From assembly GCA_000002435.2 (NCBI GenBank), contig CM018789.1: a stretch of 64,000 nt of DNA; one strand, 5' to 3'. Position 1 is the stretch's first letter; each line of letters opens with the position of its first letter. This document shows positions 35,831 through 58,530 of this stretch, piece by piece. A program made the position numbers and the translations under genes. This DNA comes from Giardia intestinalis. Its lineage: Eukaryota. Under the pieces are notes generated by a model. It was not told the origin of the DNA. It saw only the letters and a program-made list of their open reading frames with translations, and did not search any database.

Positions 35831-35840
35831 TAAGGTCGAT

Positions 35841-37826: not shown

Positions 37827-37840
37827 ATCCTTTTGAAAAA

Positions 37841-38683: not shown

Positions 38684-39009
38684 AGATTTTACAAATAGAC
38701 TTACTTCATTTATAACTGTATTTAGAGATGGAGGTAGCTAGTGGTTATGAATGTAGAGCTTTTCTGACACCTTTGCTTATCAAATCTGGTGCGCTCTCTA
38801 AGAGACTTTTATATTTAACCAATACGCGCGCATCGGTTACCGCTCGACCGTAGCCCTCCTCCTCTTGCCCCCTGCGAGGACGCCGCCACTGGCTAGACGC
38901 GGGCGTCGTTGCTGCCCGGCCTTCTCGTGACCTCCTTCCTTCATGAGGTGTGCTCACCCCTCTCCGTCAGCACCACTCTCTGACGCATACACAGCTTGTC
39001 CATCCGGCC

Positions 39010-40220: not shown

Positions 40221-43141
40221 TCTTGCTCAGTCCCTGACTAGTCCGGAGACGAGGGTTGGTCGTGTATCAATATAAGGACCACAGTGGTAGTAGGAGGAGC
40301 TATTGCGTTCCTCAGCTGTTCTACGGGCGTGTGCTCGGTCTAGGTGTGCACATAGGTCCTTTTGGAGATCAAGCCATCTCATGGACTCACTGGTCTACTA
40401 GGGTGCCTCTCCTTGCTCTCCCCTCACGGTGAGTGAAGCTCTGGTCTTTGTTGTCATTCTCAATACTGTCCATGTAGATCAGCAGCAGCTAGCGGGGCTT
40501 TCTCTTCTGGTTGGGATTCAACTCGGTTGTGTGTCCAGTCTTTGCACCTTCTCGGTCGTTGTCGACAGGTCCCAGGGGTGGATTCATTCAGCTGTCAGAA
40601 GTAGGATGACAGGAGACGGTCGCTCTGGGTGACCAGGCTTTCGGCCCGGCCCGTCTGATCAGCTTCGTCGGGTGCTCGTTCGCCTCTGCAGCCATGTGGG
40701 CGATGGCGAAGGCAGCCCGGACAGAGAGCTTCTCAACGTCCACGTGGAGCTCCTCGAGGTGCCCCTTGGACTGGGGTGGAGGGATCCGTCTGTCCCGTAG
40801 ATGATCGGGAGCGTCCCGTCCCTGTACTTCTTGACCTTCTCGTTGTAGTAGGCATCCATCTGGCGGAGCTGGATGACACCCACATCTATCGCCTTGCACT
40901 TGTCGACAAGCCAGATGTCGGGCTTCTGGTTCTGGTCGCTGAGGTGGCTGTGGGTCTCGACTTCCAGTTCCGGTTGAGCTTCCCCGAGACGCGGAGGCAC
41001 AGGCACGCGACGATCATGTCGTGCCTCGTGGTCGAGGGTCCACGCCGTGTGGCAGCCCGGGCAGGTGCCTCTTGTCTGCGCCATGATCGAGCCGCCCTTC
41101 TCCTTCAGGGCCCTTTCCTCCTCGGTCAGCACGCCGCCGCTCTGTCCGGAAGCTGGTGTGCGCGTGAGGAGGCGGTTGAAGTAGGCCCCTTCCCCTGCAG
41201 TGCCTGGCCGTTCACCGGCAGCTCCACCGGGTCTCTGGTCCCCTTGTTGACGTCCAGGGAGGCCCATACCCTCCGCAGCTCGTCGTGGTAGGATCCAGGC
41301 ATGAGCAGGCCCAGGCCGCCCTTCTCCTTCGGGTACGCCAGGAAGTCGACCAGGCGATCGCAGCTTCTGTTGGTTAGTGCTGAAGCCTTGTGCGACGCGT
41401 CTGTTGAGCTCCTCGTAGTCCGCCTTGTCCGATGTTACTTCGACCAGGGGGGCGTAGCTCACCATCGGGACCACGCAGTGACATCAGGATGAGCTTCTGG
41501 TGGGTGGTTATGGGGGCGTTCTCAATCTTCCTCAGGGCAGTCACAGCACCTGCGATGACCTTTGGAGCTTGCAGGAGTGGGGGACGCCGGGTGGTTGAGG
41601 AAGGTCACCTCCTCGCCCGCCATGGTGGACTTGCATTGTCGCTCCTGATCGTCAGGCCCATGGCGGCAGCCTCTGCTGTGGCCAGCTGTGTTATCACACC
41701 TGCTGGGTACCCTTCGTCGTGGAACGCCACGATGTCGTCCGCTAGGCAAGGAAGGTGATGCCCCTCTCCCTGAGGCGTCTCAGGAGGCGCTCGATGGCCA
41801 TGCAGAAGAGGAGCGTGCTGAGCGGGCTGCCCTGGGGGACGCCACAGACCTCGCACTTCACGTCCCGGCTGTGCCTCAGATCGAGGAAGTTCCTGATGTA
41901 GTCGATCAGGACCTTCAGGATGCCCGCCTCGTTCAGGGCTCTGATGACCTCCGCCTTCGGGAGCGAGTTGAAGGCATTCTTTGTGTCGAGGGAGACGGCG
42001 TGCTCCTGTCCTGCTGATGAGCTCGTGGGCCCTCCTCACACCTACCGCGTACGCGTTCTGCTTGAAGGCGATCTGCTCGCATGAGAGGTAGTTGGCATGC
42101 TTGATCAGCCCTTCAGCAGGACGCGGTGGAAGATGTTCGTGACCATCCGCCTATCGCGATCGGGGTATCCGTCGGACTCTTTCGGGATGAGGATCGCCCG
42201 GAACTCGAACATGGCCATCACGTCGGACATCGCCTCGGGGTGGGTGGTCAGCTCGTTGTACGCCTGCGTGAGGTACTTCACGAAGCTGTCGTTCTGCTTC
42301 ATCGCCTTGAGCTGGACCGGCCCGAGGCCAGACACGCCTGAGGCCTTCTTGTTGAGAGTCCTAACAGGGCCTTCCTCATTTCCTCCTCGGTTGCCGCTCC
42401 AGCCCGTCGAGCTCATCGATGGAGGGTAGTCAAGGCCAACGTAGCCTTCGGGGGGACGCACGGGTGTCTCATCAAGGGCGCGGAGAGCCTTAGCAACTGC
42501 TCCGAAGCTCAGCGCGTTGTTCACCCTGTTTGCTATCCGGCGTCTCGCCTTCTCGGGGTCTGGGTCTGCCTTACTCTGGGCCTGCTCTACTGTGTTGCTT
42601 GAGTCCTCTGGGGCTTCCCACCAGGGCGTTCAGGCCCCTGATAGCAGGGAGCGCGACCCCAGTCCCGGCCTGTTCGATGCTCGCGATCATGCGTGCCCCC
42701 TGGTGGATGAGCATAGCGAGCTCTGTCTGGTTCGGTACTGGGCCGGAATGATCAACTTGTCGTCGCCCAGCACTCTGTGTCTGTCATCGTTTGCTTCTCT
42801 CAGGTGCTCGGTTGGTTGCTTGGCGCTCTCGCACGGTAGGCCACAGAGCCAGCGTGTGTGTCCTGCTGAGAGAGTAAACGTCTTTGGAGTGGTCCCCCGA
42901 GTAGAGACTCACGGCTTGCTCTCTGGGTGTCCCTGAGGTACGATTTTGCATTCGTAGTGCAGATCTGGTCCTCGCGGGCTCTCCTTCGCCTCAGGTCCAG
43001 CTGTGCGCACGCCCACGGAACAGCCGAGGAACGCACAGACCCCAGATCCACAAACGGAGGGAGCTCCTCCTATCACCGTTGTGGCTATCGTTACGACCCG
43101 CGGCCAACCCTCATCTCCAGACTGGCCGGGAATTGAGCGAG
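40221..43141 (-). mobile_element. Degenerate ('dead') non-LTR retrotransposon remnant of the R2/CRE/NeSL/Genie clade, carrying reverse transcriptase, a CCHC zinc finger and a restriction-like (REL) endonuclease. Its sense is on the minus strand, with the 5' end near 43141 and the 3' end near 40221.
   Basis: RT motifs, read on the minus strand across three different frames: FRAILIPKESDGYP (42200-42160), LDTKNAFNSL, VCGVPQGSPLSTLLFCMAIE, then ITFLA[TAG]ADDIVAFHDEG. In the last of these the Tyr codon of YADD is a stop and the frame shifts (about 41740). A C-terminal CPGCHTAWTLDHE plus KPDIWLVDKCKAIDVGVI (PD..D...K REL-endo) lies at ~41050-40900. The body is GC-rich (~62%), unlike the flanks. All the ORFs in this interval (40659..41474, 41605..42039, 42105..42524 and others) are fragments. 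Confidence 0.75.
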
Positions 43142-44352
43142 GCTTGCCCGTGGGATCTCTGGACCATACCTGCAGGCAGGCCCCAGCAGCACACCACTGG
43201 AAGCAACCGGTGGGTGGAGTAAATCATCATGACATTCGACGCTCAAGCTTCGAGTTCTGAGTCCTGGATTGGAGAAGTGAACGAGCGTGAGACCCGCCTA
43301 CCCACAGGGGAGGAGGCCTTGTATGAGGGCACGAGTTCGAGCTTCAAGATCTGAACCTTGGACCCCGGACGGTGAGCGGGCGGCCCACCCAGCGCGGCGG
43401 CTCTCACGGAGATGCTCGGACAGCAGTTGACAAACCGTTTTCAGTGAAGCAGAGAGCAAAGTGTGTGTTTCCGTGGCAGTGTCTTCCTGCAAGCAGACGA
43501 AGTTAAAAATGTCGAGTGGTGTGCTCAGGGATTCGGAGGCGAGTCGTCGCCCTCAGGACACCGAGGGGTCTGCTTCTGATAGGAGCATCGATGAAGCCGC
43601 AGAGTTTTACCACCAACAAGGGAGGAGCGGGCTGAGTCTCTCGTCTTTTTTGTTGCTGAAATACGGCTTCGTCGAGACCGACATCATGTCAGCAGCAGAG
43701 TATGGAAACCTGAGAGCCGTGAAGGTTCTGCTGAAGATGAAAGGTAGCACACAGAATAAGCTTGGAGAGACCGCGCTCATGCGGGCGGCGTACGGGGGCC
43801 ACCCGGAATGCGTGAAGTTCCTGCTGAAGAGGGAAGGCGGCAAACGGAGGAACAACGGCACCACCGCCCTTATGTACGCAGCACGGCGCGGCAAACTGGA
43901 GTCCGTGCAGCTCCTCCTGGAGAGGGAGGGTGGCATGAAAACGGATGATGGGAAGACCGCCCTAATGTATGCAGCACAGTATGGGCGCCGCGAGTGTGCG
44001 GAGGCTCTACTGGACAAGGAAGGCGGGATGAGGGCCAACAGTGGGTGGACTGCCCTCATGCACGCAGCCGACAACGGTTGCTCGGACTGCGTGAGGCTTC
44101 TAGTAGACAAAGAAGACGGCATGAAGACTAACAACGGATGGACAGCGCTCATGCATGCAGCGCAGGGTGGTCACCTGGAGTGTGCGAGGCTCCTGATGGA
44201 CAAGGAGAAAGGCATGCAGACCACCCGTGAGTGGCTCGGCTTCCCGCCCGGCACCACCGCCCTCGACATCGCAAGGAGGCATGGCCACGACGCAATCGCC
44301 TCTCTCCTCGAGTAAACGGCGCCCTTCCTCGTGTGATGTGGCTCTTCTCAAG
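43142..44352. repeat. Right arm of the 1,211-bp perfect inverted duplication; it is the reverse complement of 39010..40220
   Basis: See the left arm. About 40 bp of roughly 80%-identical degenerate extension continues inward on both sides (40221-40262 against 43100-43141). Confidence 0.9.
43461..44315 (+). CDS. Ankyrin-repeat protein, 284 aa, copy B; identical to copy A
   Basis: The protein is identical to the 39047..39901 translation. Both copies are transcribed outward, away from the central retroelement. Confidence 0.75.
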   Translation: MCVSVAVSSCKQTKLKMSSGVLRDSEASRRPQDTEGSASDRSIDEAAEFYHQQGRSGLSLSSFLLLKYGFVETDIMSAAEYGNLRAVKVLLKMKGSTQNKLGETALMRAAYGGHPECVKFLLKREGGKRRNNGTTALMYAARRGKLESVQLLLEREGGMKTDDGKTALMYAAQYGRRECAEALLDKEGGMRANSGWTALMHAADNGCSDCVRLLVDKEDGMKTNNGWTALMHAAQGGHLECARLLMDKEKGMQTTREWLGFPPGTTALDIARRHGHDAIASLLE

Positions 44353-44899
44353 AGGCAGAGAGAAAATGTCAGATAGGTGGGTTTGTGTGTGCCGGAAAGC
44401 AGTACAATGGAAATGGTAGCATATAGATATATGGAGATAGCGATATTATTAATGGAGTATGGCGGCAATGCAGAGAATGACGGTGAATACTGGTAATCCA
44501 TAGGTCAGATTCTTAAAGGCTGAAAATCTAAGAGCTCTACTAGGACTGCTTAGCATAGTAGTACGAAGCTCGGATAAGAAATTATAAAGTAATTGATAAG
44601 AGTATAGAAATGAAGATTTACAGACAAGAAGAATAAACTAACGTAATAGCAAATACTACAGGACCATAAGCTGAGTGTATAGCATCATTAAGCAACAGAG
44701 TTCTGTTGGAAGCCAAGTCTACGCCATCACTATAATTTAATCAAGTGTGCTGCTACACATTATAAAAGGAAAGGAGACCTTTGTAGAACCTCCATTATTA
44801 TCACAGCGATCATGACAGTGAGATATCAGGTATTCTAGATCCACAAAGACTCACCAGACGAGTTGAACCTTTGAATGAATGATTTGCAAACACAGACCT

Positions 44900-46060
44900 T
44901 TATAAACGTCTACTAAGGCAAAGAGGCTCTGATAAGAGCGGGTATGCGTCACAGAAGCCAATGCTCTGTGCATACTCCAAACAACTCATCACTCCTTTGC
45001 CATTCCACCGAGAAGCAATGTTACGCTCATCAGGCCTATGTAGTGAAAAGTTCTGGTAGTGAGCTTCGTTGTATGCAGATAACAATGTGACACAAGCCAC
45101 AGATTTCATTAGCGTCGCATAACAGAGCGCGTTGTTATCAAAAACATCATGCTTGCTCAATTCCAACGTGCGAAACTGTTCAGGGCAGTATCGTATCAAG
45201 GCCCGTATGGAGTCCACTTGATCTTTGCAGCAAGCTATCATTATTGCCGTCTGTCCTAATCCGTTCGTTTTACCGAGAAAGCCAGGAGCCATTTCTATAA
45301 GTCTAGCAATGTCCTTAGTAACTGCAGCGCGCATCCAGCGATCGAGATCTAGTGCGTCAGATAGATTCTTGGCATGAGGATCATTTTCTAAATCTTGAGA
45401 AATACTCTCGAGGATGTCTAGTGCAAACAGGTGGTCGATAAAAACAGTTTTTGTACGATCTGTGTTTCGGACATGCCTTTCCAGAACAAAGAACATTCCT
45501 GATTCGTAAGTAGACAAGAACAAGGCCACATCAAAGTGCCGTGCCTCAACGGCAAGCATCAGAGCCGTCTTCCCAGATACCCAGCTCGACGGTTTAGTTC
45601 CGGAGCATTTTATGTGTGCTTCGGAATGCATTTGCAGGCATGCTTCATAAGGAGCAAGGCTTCTCACTAGCTCCAAGAACCCTCCTTGCGCTGCTAGCAT
45701 GAGCGCAGACATTCCATTAGAGTCCTGAAGGCCCAGAAGACATCTTCCGGCGGCTCCTTCTTCTGTCATTGCCCAATTTAGAAGTGTGCTGGCTAGCAAT
45801 TCCTTCTTGGCGCGTAGTAAATACATTAGTGCGCTAGTTCCTCGAGGAAACTCTTCGCCACCAAGGAGAGAATCATCGGTACGGACGGAAAGGTCGAAAG
45901 CGGAGACTCCTGCGAGCAAGTCAGCAGGGGTGGACACTTCTTTAAGATATAGAAAGAGATCGTTTTCACTGGCTAGTGCATCCAAGTGCCCGGTAGCTGG
46001 TAGAGCTTGCGCTGCTATTGCCATGTCCAAACATTCCAGAAAGTCTTCTTTGTCCTCCAT
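44900..46060 (-). CDS. Ankyrin-repeat protein ('protein 21.1' type)
   Basis: Ankyrin cores MSALMLAAQGGFLELVRSLAPYEA, TALMLAVEARHFDVALFLSTYESG, TAIMIACCKDQVDSIRALIRY. The track start is 46075 (ATG, MLDFK); the alternative ATG at 46060 (MEDKEDF) sits directly on the AT-rich palindrome. Both are in frame. Confidence 0.7.
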   Translation of the reverse strand: MEDKEDFLECLDMAIAAQALPATGHLDALASENDLFLYLKEVSTPADLLAGVSAFDLSVRTDDSLLGGEEFPRGTSALMYLLRAKKELLASTLLNWAMTEEGAAGRCLLGLQDSNGMSALMLAAQGGFLELVRSLAPYEACLQMHSEAHIKCSGTKPSSWVSGKTALMLAVEARHFDVALFLSTYESGMFFVLERHVRNTDRTKTVFIDHLFALDILESISQDLENDPHAKNLSDALDLDRWMRAAVTKDIARLIEMAPGFLGKTNGLGQTAIMIACCKDQVDSIRALIRYCPEQFRTLELSKHDVFDNNALCYATLMKSVACVTLLSAYNEAHYQNFSLHRPDERNIASRWNGKGVMSCLEYAQSIGFCDAYPLLSEPLCLSRRL

Positions 46061-46068
46061 TTTAAAAT
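46059..46068. promoter_or_regulatory. Perfect palindromic AT-rich initiator ATTTTAAAAT shared by two divergent genes
   Basis: On the plus strand the sequence reads ccATTTTAAAATccaacATGcag; on the minus strand it reads ttggATTTTAAAATGgagg. Start codons are at 46060/46075 (-) and 46074 (+). Confidence 0.5.
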
Positions 46069-46073
46069 CCAAC

Positions 46074-46583
46074 ATGCAGACACACTCAGTGGGATTTTCC
46101 TACCAGAATGACCCGTACAGCCTTTCCTCCCGCGCTCTAGCAACCAAAGCGGTAGCAACAATGGATGTTCCCGGTCAGCACCGAAAGCTCGCTGTCCCAG
46201 AACCCATAGATCTGGCGTCTGTAGACGAATGGGTAACTGTCTATGGGATTACTCCATCCAATCTTTCGCTGGCTCTTCACGCCCTTATGAACTTTGGGAC
46301 CATTATGAGGGTCAATTACGCCAATCACCATTTTATTCATGTCCGTTTCAGAGACGCCCTCTCCGCACAAGCCGCGGTTTCTGCGAGAGTAATCTGTCTC
46401 AGCAAGATCTCCATCATCGGCCTTATCCCCTGTCTTGTTAAGGACTTAGACAACGACATAACACTTTGTCACGAGCTTGACCTACCTCCTTATGTGTTGA
46501 CAAAAAAGACGCCCCCAGTGGTCAGTAATGGAATACTCGAGCGGATAATAAATTGGTTTGCGACGCTTCTTAAATCTGATTAA
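46074..46583 (+). CDS. Nup35/Nup53-like nucleoporin domain protein (MPPN/RRM-like fold), ~170 aa
   Basis: DEWVTVYGITPSNLSLALHALMNFGTIMRVNYANHHFIHVRFRDALSAQAAVSARVICLSKISIIGLIPCLVKD aligns with the Nup53 RRM block (D.WVTVFGFP......L..F..YG.I......GNWMHIRY.S...A.KAL...G.I......IGV.PC). The ATG at 46074 is in frame with a later ATG at 46161. Confidence 0.55.
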   Translation: MQTHSVGFSYQNDPYSLSSRALATKAVATMDVPGQHRKLAVPEPIDLASVDEWVTVYGITPSNLSLALHALMNFGTIMRVNYANHHFIHVRFRDALSAQAAVSARVICLSKISIIGLIPCLVKDLDNDITLCHELDLPPYVLTKKTPPVVSNGILERIINWFATLLKSD

Positions 46584-46748
46584 ATTGGGCCATTTATTTG
46601 CTACCTGCTCACACTATCTGCTTGTACTCAGCTAACGTACTCAACTAACGTATTCAGTTGATTGCTGTATGATCAGTGATGCGAAAGAGTTGGATTACAT
46701 GCCCGTCATGCTCATAGCGGAACATCAGATTTGGAGATTAAAAAACTA

Positions 46749-49700
46749 ATGCGTGCGAAGTCACTGTCACATCACAAACGGCCTGTTTCTGTGTTGAGCA
46801 CTCGAAGTGTGTCGCGCGCACCTCGCAGATTAGTGCGGGGCAGAGATCGCGATCCAAATCAAGATTACGTTCGATCCTTGGTGGCCAATCTCGAGTGCAA
46901 GAATCCTCTCGAGCTGACCACGGCGATTCGAGAGCTAACAGATATTTATGTGTCTAACAAGTATTCAGAGGTCTTTTTCTCCCGCGACGTGCCTACTAAA
47001 GTCTTTAAAGCAACCCTCCAAAACAGTCACAACGCTAAGATATTTGCTCTTGGGAAAACGTTTTTAAAATGCTTCATGGAGTCTTGCGCCTCGCAGTCTT
47101 CTTATATATTTGCGAACCTCAGTATTGATTCTAAAGAATATAGTAGAACCAAGTGTCTAGATTCTCTTCTCAATTACATTATTTCACAGCTCAGTGATAG
47201 TGAAATGTTATATAGTATTTATTTCTATGTGCTTGTGGGGGACATAATCTCAACACATCACGCTTGTGTGCCATTCGTGCACACACTATCACCAATTCAC
47301 TTCATTCAGGTGTATCTCAACAAGGTGTGTAACAACCTCGATATGTGCTCGCAGACAACCAACTCTCTCTCCATTGTGCAGTTGAATCAAATACATAGGG
47401 GCCGCGGCAATGCCAAGGACGGTGACACCAGCGATGGTAACGAATCGACCAACTCCGGGATGACAGTAGCCTCCAGTCTTTCTCTCGACGAGGATTGCAC
47501 TATGCCTACGGTTTGTAAGCAGTTGGATGATGCGCTATCGGAGATCTCGTCAGCACGGAGCATTCTCTCTAACTTTGCTGAGACGGTGTTTAGTAATTCT
47601 GTTCCAGGACAAAAAAGAAAACTGCGAAAAGAGACCGCCTCATATGGCAAGCTTCCTTTGATTAATACTGTTCGCTCGGAGGGTAGCAGTATGGTGTCCG
47701 ACCGCTCATCCATCGAAATTAACAACAGTCAGCACTTGGACTCTGATGATAACGAGGAAGAAAGTGGCTATTATTCTCAGTCTAACAATGGTGACTCTAA
47801 TACCAACTTAAATAGTGACAGATCAAGAGACTTTGGCGAGGATTTGTTCGACGAAAACGATAGGGAGGAGCGACAACCCACTCCACTTGACCACCAAGAA
47901 TCAGCAGTCTTTGTCTCACCACGTACCTGCAATCAAGAACCTAGTCTACACGGCACACAGGCATCCACTGAATTGGCTAAAGACTTACAAAAACAAAGTC
48001 ATGCAGGAGTGAAAGAGCCATCTCAAGATGTGAATATAAGAAATCACTCAAGGTCTTCTTGCAGCAGAAGCAGCGCGTCATTTTGTGAGAAGGATCGCTT
48101 GCTAGAGCTCCCAGCGCTAGGTGATTGCATTCCTGAGATCCCACAACCAGAGCATAAGGATGAGAGCGTCAGGGGACGACCACCTGTCACGAGAGGAGTC
48201 AAGGTCAGACTCCCCCCTATGGTGCATGACCAACGGAATACCTCGAAAGAAACTGGAGCTTACGACCCATTACTAAATGACGCGCTTACCCAGGAATCAT
48301 CTGCGTCTGCGATTCTAACGCCATTTAACTTGGGAACTATATCGGAGGCCAAAGTCTCGTCTGCCGAGCTACAGATGGTGCAAGGAGAAGAGGCTCAATC
48401 CGTCCTAGGCTCTGCAGTCCCCGTTCTTAACCTTCACTTGCCGTTAGCTGTCAATCCTGAACGAGATCCTGTTAATGAGAGCTCGTCTCCTGCACGGCAA
48501 GTGCTCACAACCGCGCGGCGACAGTCTAGGTATATGATTCACAGCACTCAAGCTGGTAAGGGGCGAACGAATGCTGTTGCCTATGGGCAAGCTTCACACA
48601 ACAGAGCCGTCGCTCCTGGGGTCAAGAATCGCTCCTCCTCAAACCTCCTCATCCCGCCTTCCACACCAAATGGAACTCTTTCTAACATCGGGGAGCCATT
48701 TTCTGGAGCAGCTCGTCAATTTTACCCGCAAAAGGACAAGTCTGCTGACTTTACACATGCGGAGCAAATTGAGAAGGTCGAAAGACGTGCAATCTGTGGC
48801 CCATTGGCTTTGGCATCTAAAACGAAACCTTGCAGGCCCTCTATCGTTCCGCTTCTATCACTGAGTTGTCCAGCTCAACAAGAGAAAGACCCTCCTGAAA
48901 TTACCACCCAATCAACACCAAAGCTTTCTCAACAAAAGTTTCCCGGTCTCAGTCTAGGATTATCCTTAGATTTGAAGTCTGTTCACAATCGGGAGAGTAC
49001 AGCACCTTCTATGAGTCATCGAGGACATCCAGGACGATTCGGTGACACAGATTCTCCTGCCACTGGTCAGTCCTACACCGGACTTAATCAGGAGACGGCC
49101 GATTTTGTGTTTGATAAGTATCTTCAGGTTCTTTCTGAACGGCGGAAGGGAATTCCGGAACTCGTGGATGTTGCTAACCGTATTGGCGAGTATACCTTTA
49201 TGCGGGACTATCCCCTGCTATGTTCTCTCAGTCGCGATAAAACCTATTCACACGGGTCCGCGAACTTAACAGCGCGTTCCACACACAGTAGCCTTTCAGT
49301 GTTGACTACATCTACTTCCCAAGCTGTTCAGGCGAATTACATCGTCAATCACCTCTATGTAACCCATAACTATTACACTTATTTAAAGGAACACAAAAGA
49401 CGATACCTTCTCTACAAGCTATTTGGTTCCACTCATACCAGGGATTTGTCTGACTATGAATTTAACTTCTCTATTATGTCAACCGAGCTTTTGCCCCTGG
49501 TGCGTCTTCAGAGAGTGGATCTATCTAGGGAGGATGTCATTCGCCTCGGTGTTAGCTATATTCTCTACCACTGCATCAGGAACCTTTCAAATATAACGCT
49601 GAGGTACTTCCCCAATATCCTGCCAAGCATATGCACAGACCTTATTTCACTGCATCAGCGTAAGACTGGCTTCATACCTGCAGTGGTTCTAGCGTTGTCA

Positions 49701-52700
49701 ACCCTCGTCAACCAAATACACAGCGCAAGCCAAACGCGCATAAGATCAGACTGGATGCGACTATTGTTTAAGATGTATAAGTATGCTAAGCTTACCTATG
49801 ACTACATAGATGTGGACACGGGGGAGTGTGTGCCTGAAAGTGAGCTGAATGTCTGCCACGGGGGCGTAGAAGTCACAACTGAAACTATGCAGGAAAACTT
49901 TCTAGTGGAGAACACTGTTTCCCCGGCAACAGGCCTGCCAAAGCGAAAGATTGGAAAGAGGCATGCAGTAACTCTTCCAGACGACATGTTCTTACTCCAA
50001 CGCCTCGAGGCTCAGCGGCGCATGTACTGCATAGATATGTATACTCTGTCTTTGCGGTTAAGTACTTTAGTATTGATGCCTTATTCCATCTCTGCTTGTG
50101 ATGATATCGCATGTTACTTGGCAGTCATTGCTGACCGGCTGGCCACTTCGCATGCAAACCCGATGGTGCGGGGGCTTGTGACAACGGCGCTTCTTCCATC
50201 GCTTCTAAAAGTCGTGGAACTCTTTCAGACAAGACGAATCAATTCTCGCCTTCACTATATTCTTATTGTCCAACGAATCCTTGAAGTTATGAGCCTGCTA
50301 GCGTCGGACTCTTTTGTTCGTGCCCCTAGCCTTGTGACATCCCCTGAGCCTCCGGTGGTTAGAGCATTGGTCAATAACAACGTCTGCTACACCACCGATC
50401 GATCAATGCAGAACATTGATAACATGCTGTGCGACGCGCTGGTGTTCAACGAGACTAATCTTAAGTGGCTAAGACGCTATAGCTGTCTGATTTTCCTAAA
50501 CACACGCATAAAGGATGAGCTCTCGGGAATGTATTACAGCAAGCCTCAGTGTCAGCACTCCTTTGAGGTCTACAAGATTAAGTTCTCCAAGTATATTATC
50601 ACCATGATTAGACTTCTCCGGTACCACTTCCTCAAGGTGGCTCAGCAGCTCTCCACAAACACAAAATTAGAGACCACAAAGATGTTCACTGCTGCAACTC
50701 ATAATAGCACCCACAGCTCTCACATCGCTTCGCGCCTGGTTGATAGTACGAGAAGGCAAAGCTTTAAGCTAGCAACGAGCTCGTTCCATGCTCCAATATA
50801 TATCACCAAATATGCCAATCTACCAGAGAATGACTATCCACGAGGATTGAAGGAGATTGCAGAGTACACTCAGGAGACACGGCTGAAGAATTTACCTATG
50901 ACTTCGCTGGCTACCTTGTGCACTCTAGAGAGCCATGCCAATATTTTCACAACGGCACGACTGGACCACATCCCCCTAACGCGCTGTGATGAAAGTCATC
51001 GTTTTAATGTGAAGGAGCTTCTCAGAAACAACGACTGCCACAGTATCATCGGCACATGGTCATTCTTATTTGACTTCGAAACAGGAGTTTTCCCACAGTA
51101 TCTTATGCTGGCCAAAAATGGCTCGGATGTTCAGGTTCAGACAGGTGGTGTCAACTTCTCCAAACACTTGGGGCTTTTTGACGATTCTGACCTTCTCAAG
51201 GCTATGCCAACCGCAGAGACGGTGGCAGAGGCCCGAACTCAGCACACGTCAGCAAAGGAGCTCCTGACAGAGCTTTCCAAAAATGCGCTCTCTGCACCTA
51301 CAAGCAGAAAGTCTGTCCTCTACGTCCTTTATACGCTCGCTGAGTTCTTCGCCATTGAAAACGTTGATCTTTATATAAAGCCTACAGACTTGCGAAAATT
51401 CATATCGTTTCATTACAAGTCGTTCTTGAAGCTGTACAACGACTGTGAGGTAGATCTGATTGAATGTATTTTAAGTACCAACAACAGCGTGAGTCTTCTC
51501 GACCTGTGCAATGGGCACCTCAATGTACTTTGCTCTCTCATTCAGATGGATTCTCCAAACACCCGGCAATATTTCTATGAACTTCGCATCATGCAATTTC
51601 TTATTCTGCAGCTGTCAGTCGACAATATTGATCAGAATAGTGGCTGGCAGAGAACAATTGCAGAAAGCGACGCTTCTACACTCCAGAAGATAAACCTTGC
51701 TAAGGCAGAGGCCGATAGAGAATGGGCTATAAAGGTGGCATCTGCACAAGCCCAAAAATTGCTACCTCCTATCTCTATGCCATATTTACGGTCTGATAAC
51801 CCCACAGCCACTCAAGATCAGGCCAAGAAACCTTCGGGAACCAGCCCCACCAAGACTAGTGTGTTCTTCAGCACACCGACACGTCCTTTGAAGCAAACTG
51901 CTCATAGTACCGGATCTCACATTCTAGCGAATAAGGATTATGAACTGGGTGATCTCAGAGCCAATGCTAACGCAGTATCTAGTATGATAGAGGAAGATGT
52001 GGAAGACAAGGTAGTAACTACCGTAAATGGGAGTCAGGAGTCCAAGAAGAGTGCTGCAACGTCACTTTCCACTAAGCCATCAGTGTCTGCAATCTTAACC
52101 CCTGGATTGGAAACCAAGCTGATCACAGACAACAGCTCCACAATGGACCTATTGGAAAAGTCAGAGATCACCGACTGCAACATCAGCGATCAGCTGCAAG
52201 CGACAGCAAAGCAAAAGCAACCAGTTGAGGTAATTAATGGAGATGCCATTCCATCTATAGACACTCTATTTGACTATCATGGATCTGCTGTCATACACCC
52301 CCTAAAGCTCCCCAGCACGGAATCTGAATTGATGGGCTCTCAGCAGTGTACTGACAGAAAAACACCATTAGAGGGCATCAAGCACAAGAGTAGTCTGGTG
52401 ATCACTGCAGTTCCAAAGCGCTCAACCCACATTTACGACGACGATGACAGCGATAGTTGTTGGGACGACGAGGCACAGAAACGCGGCATAGAGTTGCCAA
52501 AACGAGACTCTAAACAGCGGAGGGCTAACGAGCTGGAGCCACCTAAGGCTGATAAGCCCAGTGACGCCTACTCATCTCATGGAGACTCAAGTTTTAGTGA
52601 CTCTAGTGACCTACCACGAGCTCCTCCTGCCACTGTGCCCAAGACCTTCGGATTCACTCTCAAATTACCAGCCGTTAAGGTTTCAATCGATAAGCAGAAC

Positions 52701-55700
52701 GTAGTACTGGAAAAGGAGTCCAATTCTCAGAACATAGCTGGTGGCATTTCACAGTTTGAAGCCGCTGCCGATTCCCTAAACCCCAAATTCCATTTAGTTT
52801 TAGGGAATAGAATCGCAGCCAAACTAGAAACTGCACACTCTCTTCCACTAGCCACGGAAGGTTGCCAGGCTCCGGAGCCGGTTTTAGAAGTGGAGCAAAC
52901 AGATACTGAGGGTTTGAAACAGGGCAAGCAGAGGCAAAAGCAGCCAAAGGCAACCAAGTCAGTGCTTAAGAGGACCAAGTCCACCTTTTCTAGCAGTATC
53001 AGCCTGGCTGGCTTTACCTCTGAATTTGTTCGCGATACCGATGCGAAAAATAACAAGGAACAGCAGCGCTTTCTTACTCACAGCGCAACCGTGGCAAAGC
53101 TCAGTGCTCAAAATCGGCAGACGAGCACTGCCCAGGGTAGTCCAGACAAATGTCGCATCCAGCCGGTTTTACAGCATGGAGTACAGGATCCTCTCCTCGT
53201 TGCTCAAGAGTCGACGCTCTCCACGCTCTCCGGTTACAGAGACTTTGAGCATGGAAATCCATCAGAGCTGGAGGCCTCTGATCTTTTGGAGTACTCTCAG
53301 GCCAGCGCTTCAATAGAAAAGGCGCTTCACCGACCATTATATATCCACGAGGAGCTACACTATACTATTCTGCGAATTGTTTTGCTATTGATCATTGTCC
53401 CCGAGACTGGTACTCTCGATCCGATGTACTGTTCCCAGTTTCCAGCCAATGATGGCATGCCAAACATTCTATGGATCCTTCACCACCATCTTAATCATCC
53501 GAGAAACGAGAAATTCGCCCTTAGGTTAATATCTTCCGACATTTCACCTGCTGCTAAGCGTCTCTTACGCCTCACCTGCTATACTCTGTTTGACTCTACC
53601 TTGTATCCCATCAAGGACGCCACTAAGTTTTCACTCATGGCACAGGGTGCCTATGGATCTGTTTATTCTGGGAATGTATCGCTGGTTACAGAGGACAATC
53701 AGACCAACCAATCATTCCTGACTCCAGTAGCGGTCAAAATCCAGGACAGATCGAAGTCAATTTATGACCGGTGCGTCCTTCACGATATCTTTAACGAAAT
53801 AACTGTAATGGAACGGTTAGCCAATTATAGCGGAGTTAGTCGAATGTATGATTACGGAGTTACGAAGGATGGATACTACATCATCATGCACAAGTACGTT
53901 ACCAGTCTCAGGGATCTCCGTCTCAAACTCTTCGACGACCCAGCCACACTGCAATCCAACCAATTGCTGTATCATCCGGAGCCAAAGTATAAGCATCTGC
54001 CTATATACGGCCACGAACTGTCTTACATGAAGTACATCAGAATCTATCTTCTGATATTCATAAAATTCCTCCGACACCTTGAGTACCTACATACTGCTGG
54101 AGTCAATCACTATGATATAAAGGCCGACAACGTATTCTTTGATCCCAGAACAGTTCAGTGGTACTCTAAACTAGCTAGACTGGATGAAAATAGCAGGCCT
54201 GCCGGTACTGTTGACACTGGGACGCCTATTACAAAGATTTTCCTTGATAAGATCTTCACCGATTACCAGGCTGTACCATCGTACGAACTGCTTCCTTTTC
54301 GCATTGCAATAGCGGACTTTGGAGAGTCGATGGTCTTTTCAGATGAAGAGAGCTCCTACACACTCATCAATAAGGGGACAGAATATAATAAATCGCCAGA
54401 GATGCTGCTCTCGGCAAACATGGTAGCCCAAACCCGGTCTAACTTTGATCGGCGTCGTCCAAAGGGCGCTGGAAGCTCTTCAGACATCTGGTCTGCTGCA
54501 TGCTTCCTTTACGAGCTATTGACAGGTGACATCTTGTTCTTTGACTCTGACTGGATCCGCTTCTTTATCAGAGTCACGAAGGATAGCTATCAGAGCAACG
54601 TGCGAGCAAGGGCACGTGACAAGTCAGCTGCCCAATCATTTACATTTGATCATTCAGGCAAGTTTGCTCAGCTTTACAGGGGAGTTTCGCTTTCTCCAGA
54701 GAAGAAGGCCATGTTGGGGAACTGCCAGCCAATAATAGACCTTCTTGAGTTTTGCTTGGTACCAAACCCTACTCTGCGCCCCCAAATAAGAGACGTTATC
54801 GCCATGACCGAGCACATATTAAAGGTCTATTTTCCAGAAACCTACATGTATAAGCCCGAGTGTTACTATGTGGAGCCGGCGAAGGCGGAGCCATTCATCA
54901 GTAGCAGCTTTTGTTTCAGCATTATCGGAAGTGTTAATGACTGCCTGGTCAATCCTAGCGATGCCCTTGCACCAAAGCTTTCTATTGTCAAAAAGCAATG
55001 CGAACAATCCCCGAACTCTGTACAGAAGCAATTGGAGAGCCATGCTGCTATACCCAGCTACCTTCTTGCGACGGCTCAGCTCACTAGCCCTGTGTTGGGT
55101 CAACCCTGTGCCACGCTTCCTGTCAAAGTGATGCCTCCTGCCACTAATATTATAGATGGGTTTCTGTGGATAGGGTCTGTTTCCGTCTTGCGGCATGCAG
55201 AGCATCTTCTGGCATATAACGTTACGTCTGTGATTGATTGCCTAACGACCTCTCTAGAGCAGTCCATGGAGACCAAGCGAGTTATAGAAATGACCACTAT
55301 CCACTATTATAAGCTCCCCCTTGTTCTCACACAAATTATTAATCCCACGTCCAACAAGACGCTCTTTCTGGGTTCTCCTCGCGAAAGTACTCCGGGTTTA
55401 CCTAAGGCAGAGTTCCTGCGATACTCAGCCGCCCTGGACAGCGTGCTGGACTTCCTGCGCAGAACGGTCACCCATGGAGGCAGGTGCCTGCTTTACGACG
55501 AGAACGGTACCGGCCTCTCTGCTGCAGTGGCAATAGCCATGCTCGTGGAATTTAGATCTCTGTCTCTGTTTGCTGCTTACCTCCACGTCAGGAACCTCAG
55601 GCCTCACATTGCACCTCCCCTTCCGTTCTTAGATTTCCTGCACTACTGGTTCTTATTCAGAGTTCGACCAGGAATTAAGAACAAAGACTTTCTCTATGCG

Positions 55701-56291
55701 AACTCTTCGTACTTCAGACAAATTCTTTTCAAGCCTACACCGACATTTGAGCAACTTATTAATCTAAGGATCAGTAAGGCGCGATATCAGTGTCTTTGTG
55801 GCAAGATCTTCTTTATAGTCAAGCCAGACGTGAAGCGGATGCCGACATTTGTGCTTTGCAACTGTGCATATACACCGCAGCTTTCCAAGGACTCCCCAGG
55901 AACACCTGGAAAGGCCCTGAGCCAACCAGCCTGTCCTACTCTATCGTGCCGATCCATAATCAATCTATTCATGTCTATTTACGGATTGCGTCTCGGACGA
56001 ATCCTTTGGGCCTTTCTTCCTGCTCGAGACGTTGTCTCTAATTGGAAGACAGACACGATGGGAATAAGGAACATTCCCTCAACACCCCACGCCATCGAGA
56101 GAGCCTCAGCAGACATGTATAACAAGTTTACGGGCCTCGACAATATGCGCGCTCCAATCAATCGCATACCCCGACAGAGAAATTGGGAGCTCTATTACTG
56201 CAAGATTTGCGGGCTGGTGACCCATGCTGCTGATGCTTCCTCTCCAGATGCAGTACAGCTGGCTATTCTGGCAAACTTTTCCCCGAAGTGA
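46749..56291 (+). CDS. Giant multidomain protein (~3,180 aa). It has a long N-terminal S/N/T-rich and helical region, a C-terminal Ser/Thr protein kinase domain that looks catalytically competent, and a dual-specificity-phosphatase (DSP) fold lacking the catalytic Cys and Arg (pseudophosphatase).
   Basis: Kinase (about 53600-54800): LMAQGAYGSVYSG (Gly loop), VAVKIQD (Lys), LHTAGVNHYDIKADNVFF (catalytic loop with Asp), IADFGES (DFG), KSPEML (APE-like). DSP-like (about 55130-55560): IDGFLWIGSVSVLRHAEHLLAYNVTSVIDCL ... GGRCLLYDENGTGLSAAVAIAMLVEF. The signature VHCxAGxxRS reads LYDENGTGLS here, so Cys is Asp and Arg is Leu. The track start at 46731 is TTG; the first ATG is 46749, preceded by gagattaaaaaacta. 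Confidence 0.7.
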   Translation: MRAKSLSHHKRPVSVLSTRSVSRAPRRLVRGRDRDPNQDYVRSLVANLECKNPLELTTAIRELTDIYVSNKYSEVFFSRDVPTKVFKATLQNSHNAKIFALGKTFLKCFMESCASQSSYIFANLSIDSKEYSRTKCLDSLLNYIISQLSDSEMLYSIYFYVLVGDIISTHHACVPFVHTLSPIHFIQVYLNKVCNNLDMCSQTTNSLSIVQLNQIHRGRGNAKDGDTSDGNESTNSGMTVASSLSLDEDCTMPTVCKQLDDALSEISSARSILSNFAETVFSNSVPGQKRKLRKETASYGKLPLINTVRSEGSSMVSDRSSIEINNSQHLDSDDNEEESGYYSQSNNGDSNTNLNSDRSRDFGEDLFDENDREERQPTPLDHQESAVFVSPRTCNQEPSLHGTQASTELAKDLQKQSHAGVKEPSQDVNIRNHSRSSCSRSSASFCEKDRLLELPALGDCIPEIPQPEHKDESVRGRPPVTRGVKVRLPPMVHDQRNTSKETGAYDPLLNDALTQESSASAILTPFNLGTISEAKVSSAELQMVQGEEAQSVLGSAVPVLNLHLPLAVNPERDPVNESSSPARQVLTTARRQSRYMIHSTQAGKGRTNAVAYGQASHNRAVAPGVKNRSSSNLLIPPSTPNGTLSNIGEPFSGAARQFYPQKDKSADFTHAEQIEKVERRAICGPLALASKTKPCRPSIVPLLSLSCPAQQEKDPPEITTQSTPKLSQQKFPGLSLGLSLDLKSVHNRESTAPSMSHRGHPGRFGDTDSPATGQSYTGLNQETADFVFDKYLQVLSERRKGIPELVDVANRIGEYTFMRDYPLLCSLSRDKTYSHGSANLTARSTHSSLSVLTTSTSQAVQANYIVNHLYVTHNYYTYLKEHKRRYLLYKLFGSTHTRDLSDYEFNFSIMSTELLPLVRLQRVDLSREDVIRLGVSYILYHCIRNLSNITLRYFPNILPSICTDLISLHQRKTGFIPAVVLALSTLVNQIHSASQTRIRSDWMRLLFKMYKYAKLTYDYIDVDTGECVPESELNVCHGGVEVTTETMQENFLVENTVSPATGLPKRKIGKRHAVTLPDDMFLLQRLEAQRRMYCIDMYTLSLRLSTLVLMPYSISACDDIACYLAVIADRLATSHANPMVRGLVTTALLPSLLKVVELFQTRRINSRLHYILIVQRILEVMSLLASDSFVRAPSLVTSPEPPVVRALVNNNVCYTTDRSMQNIDNMLCDALVFNETNLKWLRRYSCLIFLNTRIKDELSGMYYSKPQCQHSFEVYKIKFSKYIITMIRLLRYHFLKVAQQLSTNTKLETTKMFTAATHNSTHSSHIASRLVDSTRRQSFKLATSSFHAPIYITKYANLPENDYPRGLKEIAEYTQETRLKNLPMTSLATLCTLESHANIFTTARLDHIPLTRCDESHRFNVKELLRNNDCHSIIGTWSFLFDFETGVFPQYLMLAKNGSDVQVQTGGVNFSKHLGLFDDSDLLKAMPTAETVAEARTQHTSAKELLTELSKNALSAPTSRKSVLYVLYTLAEFFAIENVDLYIKPTDLRKFISFHYKSFLKLYNDCEVDLIECILSTNNSVSLLDLCNGHLNVLCSLIQMDSPNTRQYFYELRIMQFLILQLSVDNIDQNSGWQRTIAESDASTLQKINLAKAEADREWAIKVASAQAQKLLPPISMPYLRSDNPTATQDQAKKPSGTSPTKTSVFFSTPTRPLKQTAHSTGSHILANKDYELGDLRANANAVSSMIEEDVEDKVVTTVNGSQESKKSAATSLSTKPSVSAILTPGLETKLITDNSSTMDLLEKSEITDCNISDQLQATAKQKQPVEVINGDAIPSIDTLFDYHGSAVIHPLKLPSTESELMGSQQCTDRKTPLEGIKHKSSLVITAVPKRSTHIYDDDDSDSCWDDEAQKRGIELPKRDSKQRRANELEPPKADKPSDAYSSHGDSSFSDSSDLPRAPPATVPKTFGFTLKLPAVKVSIDKQNVVLEKESNSQNIAGGISQFEAAADSLNPKFHLVLGNRIAAKLETAHSLPLATEGCQAPEPVLEVEQTDTEGLKQGKQRQKQPKATKSVLKRTKSTFSSSISLAGFTSEFVRDTDAKNNKEQQRFLTHSATVAKLSAQNRQTSTAQGSPDKCRIQPVLQHGVQDPLLVAQESTLSTLSGYRDFEHGNPSELEASDLLEYSQASASIEKALHRPLYIHEELHYTILRIVLLLIIVPETGTLDPMYCSQFPANDGMPNILWILHHHLNHPRNEKFALRLISSDISPAAKRLLRLTCYTLFDSTLYPIKDATKFSLMAQGAYGSVYSGNVSLVTEDNQTNQSFLTPVAVKIQDRSKSIYDRCVLHDIFNEITVMERLANYSGVSRMYDYGVTKDGYYIIMHKYVTSLRDLRLKLFDDPATLQSNQLLYHPEPKYKHLPIYGHELSYMKYIRIYLLIFIKFLRHLEYLHTAGVNHYDIKADNVFFDPRTVQWYSKLARLDENSRPAGTVDTGTPITKIFLDKIFTDYQAVPSYELLPFRIAIADFGESMVFSDEESSYTLINKGTEYNKSPEMLLSANMVAQTRSNFDRRRPKGAGSSSDIWSAACFLYELLTGDILFFDSDWIRFFIRVTKDSYQSNVRARARDKSAAQSFTFDHSGKFAQLYRGVSLSPEKKAMLGNCQPIIDLLEFCLVPNPTLRPQIRDVIAMTEHILKVYFPETYMYKPECYYVEPAKAEPFISSSFCFSIIGSVNDCLVNPSDALAPKLSIVKKQCEQSPNSVQKQLESHAAIPSYLLATAQLTSPVLGQPCATLPVKVMPPATNIIDGFLWIGSVSVLRHAEHLLAYNVTSVIDCLTTSLEQSMETKRVIEMTTIHYYKLPLVLTQIINPTSNKTLFLGSPRESTPGLPKAEFLRYSAALDSVLDFLRRTVTHGGRCLLYDENGTGLSAAVAIAMLVEFRSLSLFAAYLHVRNLRPHIAPPLPFLDFLHYWFLFRVRPGIKNKDFLYANSSYFRQILFKPTPTFEQLINLRISKARYQCLCGKIFFIVKPDVKRMPTFVLCNCAYTPQLSKDSPGTPGKALSQPACPTLSCRSIINLFMSIYGLRLGRILWAFLPARDVVSNWKTDTMGIRNIPSTPHAIERASADMYNKFTGLDNMRAPINRIPRQRNWELYYCKICGLVTHAADASSPDAVQLAILANFSPK

Positions 56292-56442: not shown

Positions 56443-58530
56443 CTAGACACCGCGTAAGGATATAGCCCTAGCCAAAGTGCCGCACTGAGGACACTTGGTG
56501 ATTGACTCAGGGTTAGATGTGGCAATCCTGTGGCCACACGGCGAACATACAGCAGCCTCGCCCAAGATCGGAGACACAGTTGCAGAGCAGGAGCGAAGAA
56601 TGGTCGGGTCACTGGATATAACGTCGATGATCGCCACCTTGAGGTCCTCCGGGTCTGCGGCTTTAGCGCCAATCTTAGTGCGAAGTAGGCTAGCTTCGTT
56701 TTTCGCACTTAGTATATCTTTTCCCATAGAAAACTGCTGTCTTTTAATTTGTTCCAGCTCCTTTCTCACCTTTGCAAACTCCCTGAGAATCTGCCTAATC
56801 GTGCCGCTGTCGGCTCCACCGCTACCAAGTTCAGAGGGTTCTTGGAAGAATGAGTTCAGGGATTTATCCTCGTAATACGAGATATTTTTGCTTACATCTG
56901 TATTTAACTGCTGGAGTGGCTTTGTGTCCACAGAAGCAAGCGCCTCTGTGCCAGTTTTATTGAGGATATGAGGTTGCGGGACATACGTTGATGGATTGCT
57001 AGTTTGATAGAAGTCATCACTGTCCTGTGAAGGCGTTTGAATGGCAACAGGACCGCTGGGAATAGCAGGAAACTGAGAAATAGACTTCTTTCTAACACCA
57101 CGAGGTATGTTAGTAGGTAGAATAACTGCATTAGCCACATGGGCTTCTATGTCAGAGCACTCGTCAATTGACACTCTAAGGCCTCCAGAGTGTCTTCTGG
57201 GAGCACCAGACACAGAGTTAAGTCTTTTGAAGCGGTGCTTCTTTTCCCTAGACAAAGATGGAGCCTTAGGAGGGACAGTCGTCATAGCCTTGTATTCAGC
57301 GCACTCTCGCTTCAAGGCATCTATCTCTCTATCCTTTCTTGTTACAATGTCGCTTAATCGCTGTACTTCTGCAGTAAGCTTCACCATCTCATGGTCCTCA
57401 GAACTGGCGAGAAGGGCATCCAGTACTGATTGGGATTGCTGCTGCTCGTTTTTCACGCGGTCTATTTCCTCTTTCATAAGCCTCACTGTCTTGTTCAGGG
57501 CTTCAACTTCATGTCTGGCGTCATCATACTTTTCTGCTCTGCTTTTATATGTAGCTCCCTCTTCCTTAAGGCGCTCGATTTCCATAGCGAGACCCTTATC
57601 ATTTTCCAAGTGACTCTTATCAACTAAGGCCTCTAGCTTTTTAATTGTATCGTGTGCCACCATTAGTTCATGCTTAAGTTTCTCAATTGTATCTGTGTCG
57701 GCTGCTTCTCCTAAAATAGGACTAGCCTCGGTGTCTGCTGAGATGCATTGTTGGAACGAGGCATCGGGGTCAACAATTGTATGCACAACAGACTTAGAGT
57801 AAAGGTAATCTTGTTGACCGGTTGGGAAGGTAATGCTGTCATTTTTGCGTGCAACAGAAACCATGCGCATGACCTTGGCGTTCTCCAAAATCAGAGGACC
57901 CTCTGTGTCTATTAGCAGCTCAGCGACCGAGCCGTGATTGTTCCAGACAGCCGACATTAGAGCTGTCCACCCATATGGATCCATGACACGTGCCTCAGCG
58001 CCCATGAGAAATTTAACCACAGAATAGTGTCCATTCCACGCTGCAGACATGAGTGCGGTCCACCCCTTCTGATCGACCATGCCCTTTTCCCGTTCGTAAA
58101 GGAGCTTCACAACATCTAGGTGTCCATTCCAGGCCGCACACATTAACGCAGTCCAGCCATCTACATCTTGCATCCCCACTTCCTCGCTGTAAAGATAATT
58201 CACCACTTCTAGGTGTCCGTTCCACGCAGCGGACATGAGTGCGGTCCAACCACTGCAATCACGCATGCGGATTTCCTGGTGGGATAGGTAGCGAACACAG
58301 TCCCAGTTCCCAGACCACGACGCATACATCAGCGCAGTCCAGCCGTCTTCATCAGCCTGCCCAAGCTCGTAAGGCGCGAGCATCTCCACGATCTCAACGT
58401 GACCTTCCTGGGCCGCCAACATCAACGCTGTGCGTCCCTCTTGGTCCCGCTGTCTAGCATACTCCTCCAAAAGCTCTGCAACTAGCTCGGTGTTCCCCGC
58501 AAACGCGGCCTCCATGAGCCTAGTGGTCAT
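56443..58530 (-). CDS. Ankyrin-repeat plus coiled-coil protein with a C-terminal Cys4 zinc ribbon ('protein 21.1' type)
   Basis: The N-terminal ankyrin repeats share a WTALM(Y/S/C)A(A/S)W(N/S)G(H/N) core across 7 repeats. The central part is coiled coil (KLEALVDKSHLEND...LKRECAEYK). The C-terminus reads CSPCGHRIATSNPESITKCPQCGT. ATG at 58530 confirmed. Confidence 0.7.
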   Translation of the reverse strand: MTTRLMEAAFAGNTELVAELLEEYARQRDQEGRTALMLAAQEGHVEIVEMLAPYELGQADEDGWTALMYASWSGNWDCVRYLSHQEIRMRDCSGWTALMSAAWNGHLEVVNYLYSEEVGMQDVDGWTALMCAAWNGHLDVVKLLYEREKGMVDQKGWTALMSAAWNGHYSVVKFLMGAEARVMDPYGWTALMSAVWNNHGSVAELLIDTEGPLILENAKVMRMVSVARKNDSITFPTGQQDYLYSKSVVHTIVDPDASFQQCISADTEASPILGEAADTDTIEKLKHELMVAHDTIKKLEALVDKSHLENDKGLAMEIERLKEEGATYKSRAEKYDDARHEVEALNKTVRLMKEEIDRVKNEQQQSQSVLDALLASSEDHEMVKLTAEVQRLSDIVTRKDREIDALKRECAEYKAMTTVPPKAPSLSREKKHRFKRLNSVSGAPRRHSGGLRVSIDECSDIEAHVANAVILPTNIPRGVRKKSISQFPAIPSGPVAIQTPSQDSDDFYQTSNPSTYVPQPHILNKTGTEALASVDTKPLQQLNTDVSKNISYYEDKSLNSFFQEPSELGSGGADSGTIRQILREFAKVRKELEQIKRQQFSMGKDILSAKNEASLLRTKIGAKAADPEDLKVAIIDVISSDPTILRSCSATVSPILGEAAVCSPCGHRIATSNPESITKCPQCGTLARAISLRGV

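Follow-up and report, generated by a model that had tools for sequence, protein, structure and literature searches.

What use does a very large protein kinase have for a phosphatase domain without catalytic residues? The question is raised by a gene in a 64-kb stretch of Giardia intestinalis DNA (64,000 nucleotides of contig CM018789.1, assembly GCA_000002435.2; referred to as the window). The gene, GL50803_16436 or 'Kinase, Uni1', codes for a kinase domain, a domain with the fold of the dual-specificity phosphatases (DSP) and a C-terminal domain with eight conserved cysteines (8-Cys domain). The answer preferred here, with a probability somewhat above even, is a scaffold kinase with a non-catalytic pseudo-DSP and a zinc-type docking or regulatory module at the C-terminus. 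Gene and family are already known and the gene is correctly read.

The P-loop of the DSP-like domain has lost its key residues. In the position of the canonical HC-x5-R(S/T) motif, the Giardia protein has Y-D2917-ENGTG-L2923-S. The replacement of Cys by Asp and of Arg by Leu had been recognised in a first-pass annotation of the window, and the phmmer, profile and amoebozoan alignments agree on it. In the phmmer search against PDB sequences, DUSP28 was found with an E-value of 6e-6. The alignment pairs GGRCLLYDENGTGLSAAV with GGACLVYSKNGRSRSAAV, so that D2917 corresponds to the nucleophile and L2923 to the Arg. The solved DUSP28 chain has itself a Ser at the nucleophile position, compared with the catalytic Cys of canonical DSPs. 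Pfam DSPc matches the Giardia sequence below the threshold (21.1 versus 33.5 bits), covering only profile positions 55-127. The amoebozoan orthologues pass Pfam DSPc across the whole profile with 83.8 and 103.3 bits, and their P-loop VLIVSDKGVSRSAA aligns residue for residue with the Giardia P-loop CLLYDENGTGLSAA. A profile of the DSP and C-terminal region was searched exhaustively against 1.84 billion representatives. It yielded 16,559 matches with E<=1e-3 and 3,731 with E<=1e-10; most were ordinary DSPs that cover profile positions ~11-157. The closest solved structure to the Giardia domain is STYX. The assignment to the DSP fold of the protein tyrosine phosphatases (PTP) is firm.

The third catalytic element of a DSP, the general-acid Asp of the D-loop, is found as LHDD in dictyostelids, as LLDD in Balamuthia and as VEDD in canonical DSP. 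Giardia has no counterpart at the aligned position, at which a loop insertion makes the register less certain. Lacking the Cys, the P-loop Arg and the general-acid Asp, the domain is by its sequence a pseudophosphatase. The loss of function did not open the way to drift. Between the Giardia strains WB and P15, the pseudo-DSP is 93.3% identical, compared with 96.2% for the kinase, 95.9% for the C-terminal domain, 93%-94% for the helical regions and 80%-84% for the linkers. These identities indicate that the pseudo-DSP is under purifying selection.

The catalytic state of the family was surveyed in 50 members with at least seven of the eight C-terminal Cys and an aligned P-loop, taken from all retrieved members aligned to the profile. 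None of them has C-x5-R. A catalytic Cys-x5-Arg missed by misalignment, the error that would have undone the pseudophosphatase assignment, was thus not found. The pair of nucleophile and Arg positions is Ser/Arg in 11 members, mostly Amoebozoa. It is Asp with Leu, Val, Ile or Phe in 12 members, which include Fornicata and, among them, Giardia. Six members have Glu with a residue other than Arg, and two have a Cys at the nucleophile position with Tyr or Ile in place of the Arg. The remaining members have Gly, Tyr, His or Ala as nucleophile replacement. An Asp or Glu follows directly after the nucleophile position in 34 of the 50, which suggests that the acidified loop itself is conserved. One retrieved protein, P0092, has the loop HCVEGKSRS. 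It has neither a Cys-rich domain nor a kinase motif and was rejected as an ordinary DSP outside Uni1. Because no sampled member has C-x5-R, the phosphatase was probably already non-catalytic in the common ancestor of the sampled lineages. The simplest reading of the alignments is a later decay at unequal pace: Arg and general-acid Asp persist in Amoebozoa, and both are gone in Giardia.

The C-terminal 8-Cys domain is even more strictly conserved than the pseudo-DSP and had been overlooked in the first-pass annotation. In alignments of 13 and of 38 sequences, C3015, C3017, C3037, C3039, C3062, C3067, C3151, C3154 and P3063 are invariant. Near-invariant are G3018, W3087, W3146 and N3176. No Pfam family covers the domain and only sub-threshold matches were obtained: STEEP1 in 4 of 38 members (best E-value 0.0047) and GFA (PF04828) in one of 38 (0.027). 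For the Giardia domain, STEEP1 at 0.0047, below the cut-off, was the only Pfam match. Foldseek found structural matches with a best E-value of 7e-3. In a comparison of the domain profile with PDB chains, 3fac ranked first with a non-significant E-value of 0.29. The alignment with this structure includes the C-x-C-G, C-x-C and C-x-x-C-G motifs: QCLCG..CNC corresponds to TCHCG..CDC, and YKCKTCGxxTHA to WFCRTCGIYTHH. On the basis of fold prediction, the domain is assigned to the beta-tent folds as a divergent GFA/CENP-V-like member, and its Cys pattern and modelled fold suggest that it probably binds two zinc ions. The similarity to GFA/CENP-V sequences is below significance at the E-value given for 3fac. 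What distinguishes the Uni1 domain from GFA/CENP-V, cereblon CULT, Yippee/Mis18, MsrB and STEEP1 is a long insert and an additional C-P-x3-C pair. An earlier description of a beta-tent domain adjoining a DSP or a kinase was not found. No kinship with DSP-plus-zinc proteins of the DUSP12/Yvh1 type was found: the matches with two stretches and 300-400 aa were tandem-DSP proteins, in which the second stretch is another DSP.

The kinase domain is catalytically complete and, judged by its motifs, probably active, as had been proposed. Pfam Pkinase matches residues 2321-2685 with 61.4 bits, well above the gathering cut-off of 31.7. The motifs are GAYGSV at 2300, VAVK at 2327-2330, HYDIKADN at 2454-2461, DFG at 2523-2525 and SPE at 2549-2551. 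Key residues are G2300/G2303, K2330, E2350, D2456, K2458, N2461, D2523, E2551, D2579 and R2677. Eleven homologues aligned with the Giardia sequence share without exception the beta3 Lys, the alphaC Glu, the catalytic Asp, Lys and Asn, DFGE, GTE..PEML, D.W and the Arg of subdomain XI. The Arg of the HRD motif is a Tyr (HYD), and Uni1 is therefore a non-RD kinase. Lineage-specific inserts are present in the domain. All solved kinases are remote. The best phmmer match, GSK3beta with an E-value of ~1e-6, covers only the catalytic-loop segment, and the NCBIfam search gave only trivial kinase matches below the threshold. This remoteness fits the placement of Uni1 in a separate family of the group 'Other'. 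Table S1 of Manning et al. 2011 lists the kinase as 'Active (K,D,D present)'. The family-specific extension before the kinase has the consensus LH..L..LI.P.TGTLD..Y..QFP...NI..ILHHHLNH ... RLLRL.C.

Some 2,300 aa had been described as free of recognisable domains. For Pfam this holds, with no match in the N-terminal ~2,190 aa of Giardia Uni1 or of four orthologues. As a statement on conservation it does not, given the 8-Cys domain and the conserved helical regions in the N-terminal part. BLASTP searches with the N-terminal helical region found Hexamita P0013 (5e-4), P0027 (9e-36) and P0028 (7e-20); with the central helical region the E-values were 3e-36, 4e-117 and 4e-165, respectively. Collinearity with these three proteins beyond the kinase extends over Giardia residues ~40-290 and ~680-1660. 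The central region also has a weak motif match to a dictyostelid protein (Y-x-SF-x-KLYN, 1e-4), and dictyostelids share the short motifs Y-x-SF-x-KLYN and PKF-x-L-V-x-G. By these alignments, the orthologues are full-length collinear relatives of a large scaffold kinase.

Such a long protein could in principle be a fusion of separate genes, created by assembly or annotation. Nothing apart from the unusual length of the open reading frame (ORF) favours a fusion, and its probability is close to nil. The ORF is a single, unbroken frame on the plus strand. It starts at 46731 (TTG) or 46749 (ATG), ends at 56291, and has an A-rich stretch, GATTAAAAAACTA, immediately 5' of the ATG. It is by far the largest in the window, as had been observed: the second-longest ORF of the listing has 1,253 aa, compared with 3,180 aa. 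The translation is 100% identical in every region to 'Kinase, Uni1' of G. intestinalis WB (P0175 = A8BL13 / XP_001706398.1), and the N-terminal residues agree with the GL50803_16436 sequence in Table S1 of Manning et al. 2011. Near-identical products of 3,160-3,186 aa are encoded on >120 independent contigs, also in assemblages P15 and another isolate. Since they occur in so many contigs and in several assemblages, three in Giardia, the long ORF is not an assembly artefact. In addition, orthologues of 1,950-3,518 aa from other genera are collinear over the full length.

The gene is the sole Giardia member of the Uni1 ('Unicellular kinase 1') family, which has an ancient eukaryotic origin; ORF 16436 is listed as Other/Uni1. 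Uni1 was named as a family in the Giardia kinome (Manning et al. 2011) and by Goldberg et al. The architecture is not new: it defines the family, and the DSPc domain was noted in 2006 and in 2011 in the passages found. Like its Dictyostelium homologue, the Giardia protein has a DSPc-type domain C-terminal to the kinase. Nor is the architecture confined to diplomonads. Among named homologues, 'Kinase' proteins of Hexamita inflata match the C-terminal 900 aa best, with 36%-37% identity at full coverage. Taxon names were available for some of the representatives only. Further Fornicata homologues are from Kipferlia bialata and Carpediemonas membranifera, together with the diplomonad-like P0027 (3,518 aa) and P0028 (2,726 aa). 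Amoebozoan homologues were found in four dictyostelids (Polysphondylium, Cavenderia and Tieghemostelium are named), Balamuthia, Pelomyxa, Mastigamoeba, Mastigella and Planoprotostelium. Green algae have the kinase with a degenerate DSP in Coccomyxa (P0019, P0020) and Chloropicon mariensis (P0004), and the Chloropicon homologue includes the 8-Cys domain. Many metagenomic eukaryote sequences also contained homologues. The order of kinase, DSP and Cys domain is fixed and co-conserved in all full-length members. This order, together with the long helical stretches in the N-terminal part, is seen again in Fornicata (metamonads), Amoebozoa and green algae.

The summary of Uni1 in Manning et al. 2011 includes 'lost in plants'. 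This needs qualifying because the green algae Coccomyxa and Chloropicon have Uni1. The published passages found on Uni1 state neither that the DSPc domain is dead nor that a Cys-rich domain is present at the C-terminus. The available part of a 2025 reannotation of the Giardia kinome does not mention a phosphatase domain, and no mention of GL50803_16436 was found in the main text of the papers searched. A Uni1-type fragment with kinase, Ser-x5-Arg DSP and 8-Cys domain (P0034, MDP2437988.1) was deposited as 'MAG: dual specificity protein phosphatase PHS1 family protein [archaeon]'. It is probably a eukaryotic contig that was mis-binned into an archaeal metagenome-assembled genome (MAG) and named by its domain architecture.

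Several known systems combine kinase and phosphatase folds. The 'kinatases' of trypanosomatids consist of two pseudokinase domains, leucine-rich repeats (LRRs) and an active DSP (Brenchley et al. 2007). Kinatases and Uni1 both have kinase-like and DSP domains on one protist polypeptide, but the logic is reversed: in Uni1 the kinase, present once, looks active, the DSP is dead, and Pfam finds no LRR. With none of the defining features present, identity with kinatases was rejected. PHS1 of plants and green algae is an atypical tubulin kinase of the actin-fragmin-kinase type with an active phosphatase similar to MAP kinase phosphatases (MKP), which suppresses the kinase in cis. Its order, an N-terminal kinase and then a DSP/MKP-like domain, is that of Uni1, and NCBI labels one Uni1-like fragment 'PHS1 family'. 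Uni1 differs from PHS1 in its Pkinase-type domain and in the absence of a catalytic Cys. The actin-fragmin-kinase family was not among the four Pfam matches of Uni1, and an identity with PHS1 was also rejected. GAK and auxilin combine a kinase with a PTEN-like pseudophosphatase; characteristic are the NAK kinase family, a C2 domain and a J domain. Pfam detected neither NAK nor PTEN-like/C2 nor J domain in Uni1. In STYX proteins the P-loop Arg is retained, and their binding of phospho-ligands is attributed to it. Giardia Uni1 differs from STYX and MK-STYX in the Leu at this position, the acidic loop, the absence of the general-acid Asp and the fusion to a kinase. The earlier label 'STYX-type' is overstated. 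It is right for a DSP fold with a replaced Cys and STYX as closest structure, and it fails for the P-loop Arg, which is not retained (L2923).

The P-loop is also the starting point for considering the function. To bind phosphate, a PTP fold needs a positive pocket and the Arg of the P-loop. In the Giardia domain, phosphate binding is unlikely because the Arg and the general-acid Asp are lost and the loop carries D2917-E2918. This bears on the suggestion in the first-pass annotation that the dead phosphatase serves as a built-in trap for phospho-substrates, which may be widened to a reader of priming sites for the adjacent kinase. STYX as closest solved structure and the purifying selection on the pseudo-DSP are in line with a binding of phospho-residues. 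So is the Ser-x5-Arg with general-acid Asp of Amoebozoa, the configuration of engineered C-to-S trapping mutants, and a trap suits the amoebozoan orthologues better because they keep both elements. In Giardia and other Fornicata, however, the Arg is replaced by Leu, Val, Phe or Ile, and the nucleophile position and its neighbour are D-E or D-D. An acidic pocket without Arg should repel phosphate. With a D-E-N-G-T-G-L loop and the D-loop Asp also gone, a trap is unlikely in Giardia, and the binding of phospho-residues is given a low, though not negligible, probability. Far less probable still is a weak residual catalysis with Asp2917 as nucleophile. Asp or Glu recurs at the nucleophile position in many members, and the C215D mutant of PTP1B, reportedly characterised functionally by Romsicki and colleagues in 2003, is said to have a very low residual activity. 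Such a reaction would need two residues that Giardia lacks, the Arg of the P-loop and the general-acid Asp.

The domain may instead act on its own kinase. As an intramolecular regulator, the pseudo-DSP would lie against the kinase domain and gate it allosterically or as a pseudosubstrate, with the beta-tent sensing a ligand or partner that releases it. The fixed order and co-conservation of the three domains fit this possibility, PHS1 is a precedent for the control of a kinase in cis by a DSP domain, and relatives of the beta-tent (cereblon CULT, GFA and MsrB) are among the structural matches. These relatives bind small ligands. Yet the suppression in PHS1 requires the phosphatase activity that Uni1 lacks, and kinase and DSP are joined by a ~100-aa linker of low conservation (80% identity between WB and P15). 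A regulator of this kind is about as improbable as the binding of phospho-residues. More speculative, and less probable again, is an undescribed sensor module of pseudo-DSP and two-zinc beta-tent, possibly as old as the last eukaryotic common ancestor, in which ligand occupancy would switch the kinase on or off. The acidified P-loop (D-E-x-G) might then recognise a basic or cationic ligand instead of phosphate, and the beta-tent pocket might bind a small molecule or the end of a peptide, by analogy with cereblon or GFA.

The scaffold kinase with a non-catalytic C-terminal module remains the preferred explanation. The pseudo-DSP would be kept as a non-catalytic module, and its acidified, Arg-less loop (D-E-x-G) would most likely have lost phosphate binding. 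Pseudo-DSP and neighbouring zinc-type domain would probably make up a docking or regulatory unit that would serve to target the kinase, to bring it to partners or substrates, or to control it in cis, with the scaffold supplied by the helical N-terminus. Several points weigh against this explanation. The arrangement of DSP and Cys domain is uncertain in the two-domain model (predicted TM-score, pTM, 0.51). The zinc binding is deduced from Cys pattern and predicted fold only. Even without the Arg, backbone amides could in principle still bind phospho-ligands, and the literature search found no experimental study of any Uni1 protein.

Features of the Uni1 gene and ankyrin-repeat ORFs in the window (WB and P15, Giardia strains)
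Feature	Residues	Position	Strand	Remarks
Complete coding sequence, 'Kinase, Uni1' (GL50803_16436)		46749..56291	+	3,180 aa plus stop
N-terminal conserved helical region	~40-290	46866..47618	+	BLASTP to Hexamita P0013, P0027, P0028
Central conserved helical region	~781-1640	49089..51668	+	BLASTP to Hexamita P0013, P0027, P0028
Linkers flanking the central helical region	291-780 and 1641-2190			S/T/N/P-rich, poorly conserved
Family-specific pre-kinase extension	2191-2290	53319..53618	+	conserved in all homologues aligned; WB versus P15 96% identical
Protein kinase domain, predicted active	~2291-2690	53619..54818	+	Pfam Pkinase, motifs, invariant columns
Pseudo-DSP domain	~2796-2975	55134..55673	+	
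Degenerate P-loop GGRCLLYDENGTGLSAAVAIAML	2910-2932	55476..55544	+	D2917 at Cys position, L2923 at Arg position
C-terminal 8-Cys domain	~3011-3180	55779..56288	+	predicted beta-tent fold
Ankyrin-repeat ORFs		33416-35959, 44900-46075, 56443-58530, 39047-39901	-	
Ankyrin-repeat ORF		43461-44315	+	

Genes are densely packed around Uni1, as is typical of Giardia; ankyrin-repeat proteins, a kinesin and a 5MP/W2 protein are encoded nearby. The five ankyrin ORFs lie within ~25 kb around Uni1, a cluster that we take to match the large ankyrin ('21.1') family of Giardia. Two of them are identical, with 284 aa each, and are located in the two arms (38996-40220 and 43142-44366) of a perfect inverted repeat of 1,225 nt (100% identity) with 2,921 nt between the arms. 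Repeat and spacer form a GC-rich island with a GC content of 0.57-0.60 compared with ~0.47 elsewhere. The spacer ORFs 40659-41474, 41605-42039 and 42105-42524, all on the minus strand, have no Pfam match, and no Rfam family was found in 36000-46800. Possible origins of the repeat are a recent inverted duplication, the insertion of mobile or foreign DNA, and a feature of the assembly. Upstream of Uni1, a 265-aa ORF with a GTG start (45786-46583, plus strand) takes up much of the space between the genes. It overlaps the 3' part of the divergent ankyrin gene at 44900-46075 and is probably spurious.

Compared with the published passages, the analysis adds three points to Uni1: a dead phosphatase throughout the family with lineage-specific decay, trap-like as Ser-x5-Arg in Amoebozoa and, in Fornicata, with Asp/Glu-Asp/Glu in the loop and a hydrophobic residue in the place of the Arg; a C-terminal 8-Cys, beta-tent-like domain as the most invariant feature outside the kinase; and the occurrence of Uni1 in green algae. 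These are annotations of a known gene and not a new kind of system. Uni1 is among the few 'primordial' kinase families that animals, fungi and land plants lack. As a parasite-specific and, by its conserved motifs, probably active kinase, Giardia Uni1 is a conceivable drug target.

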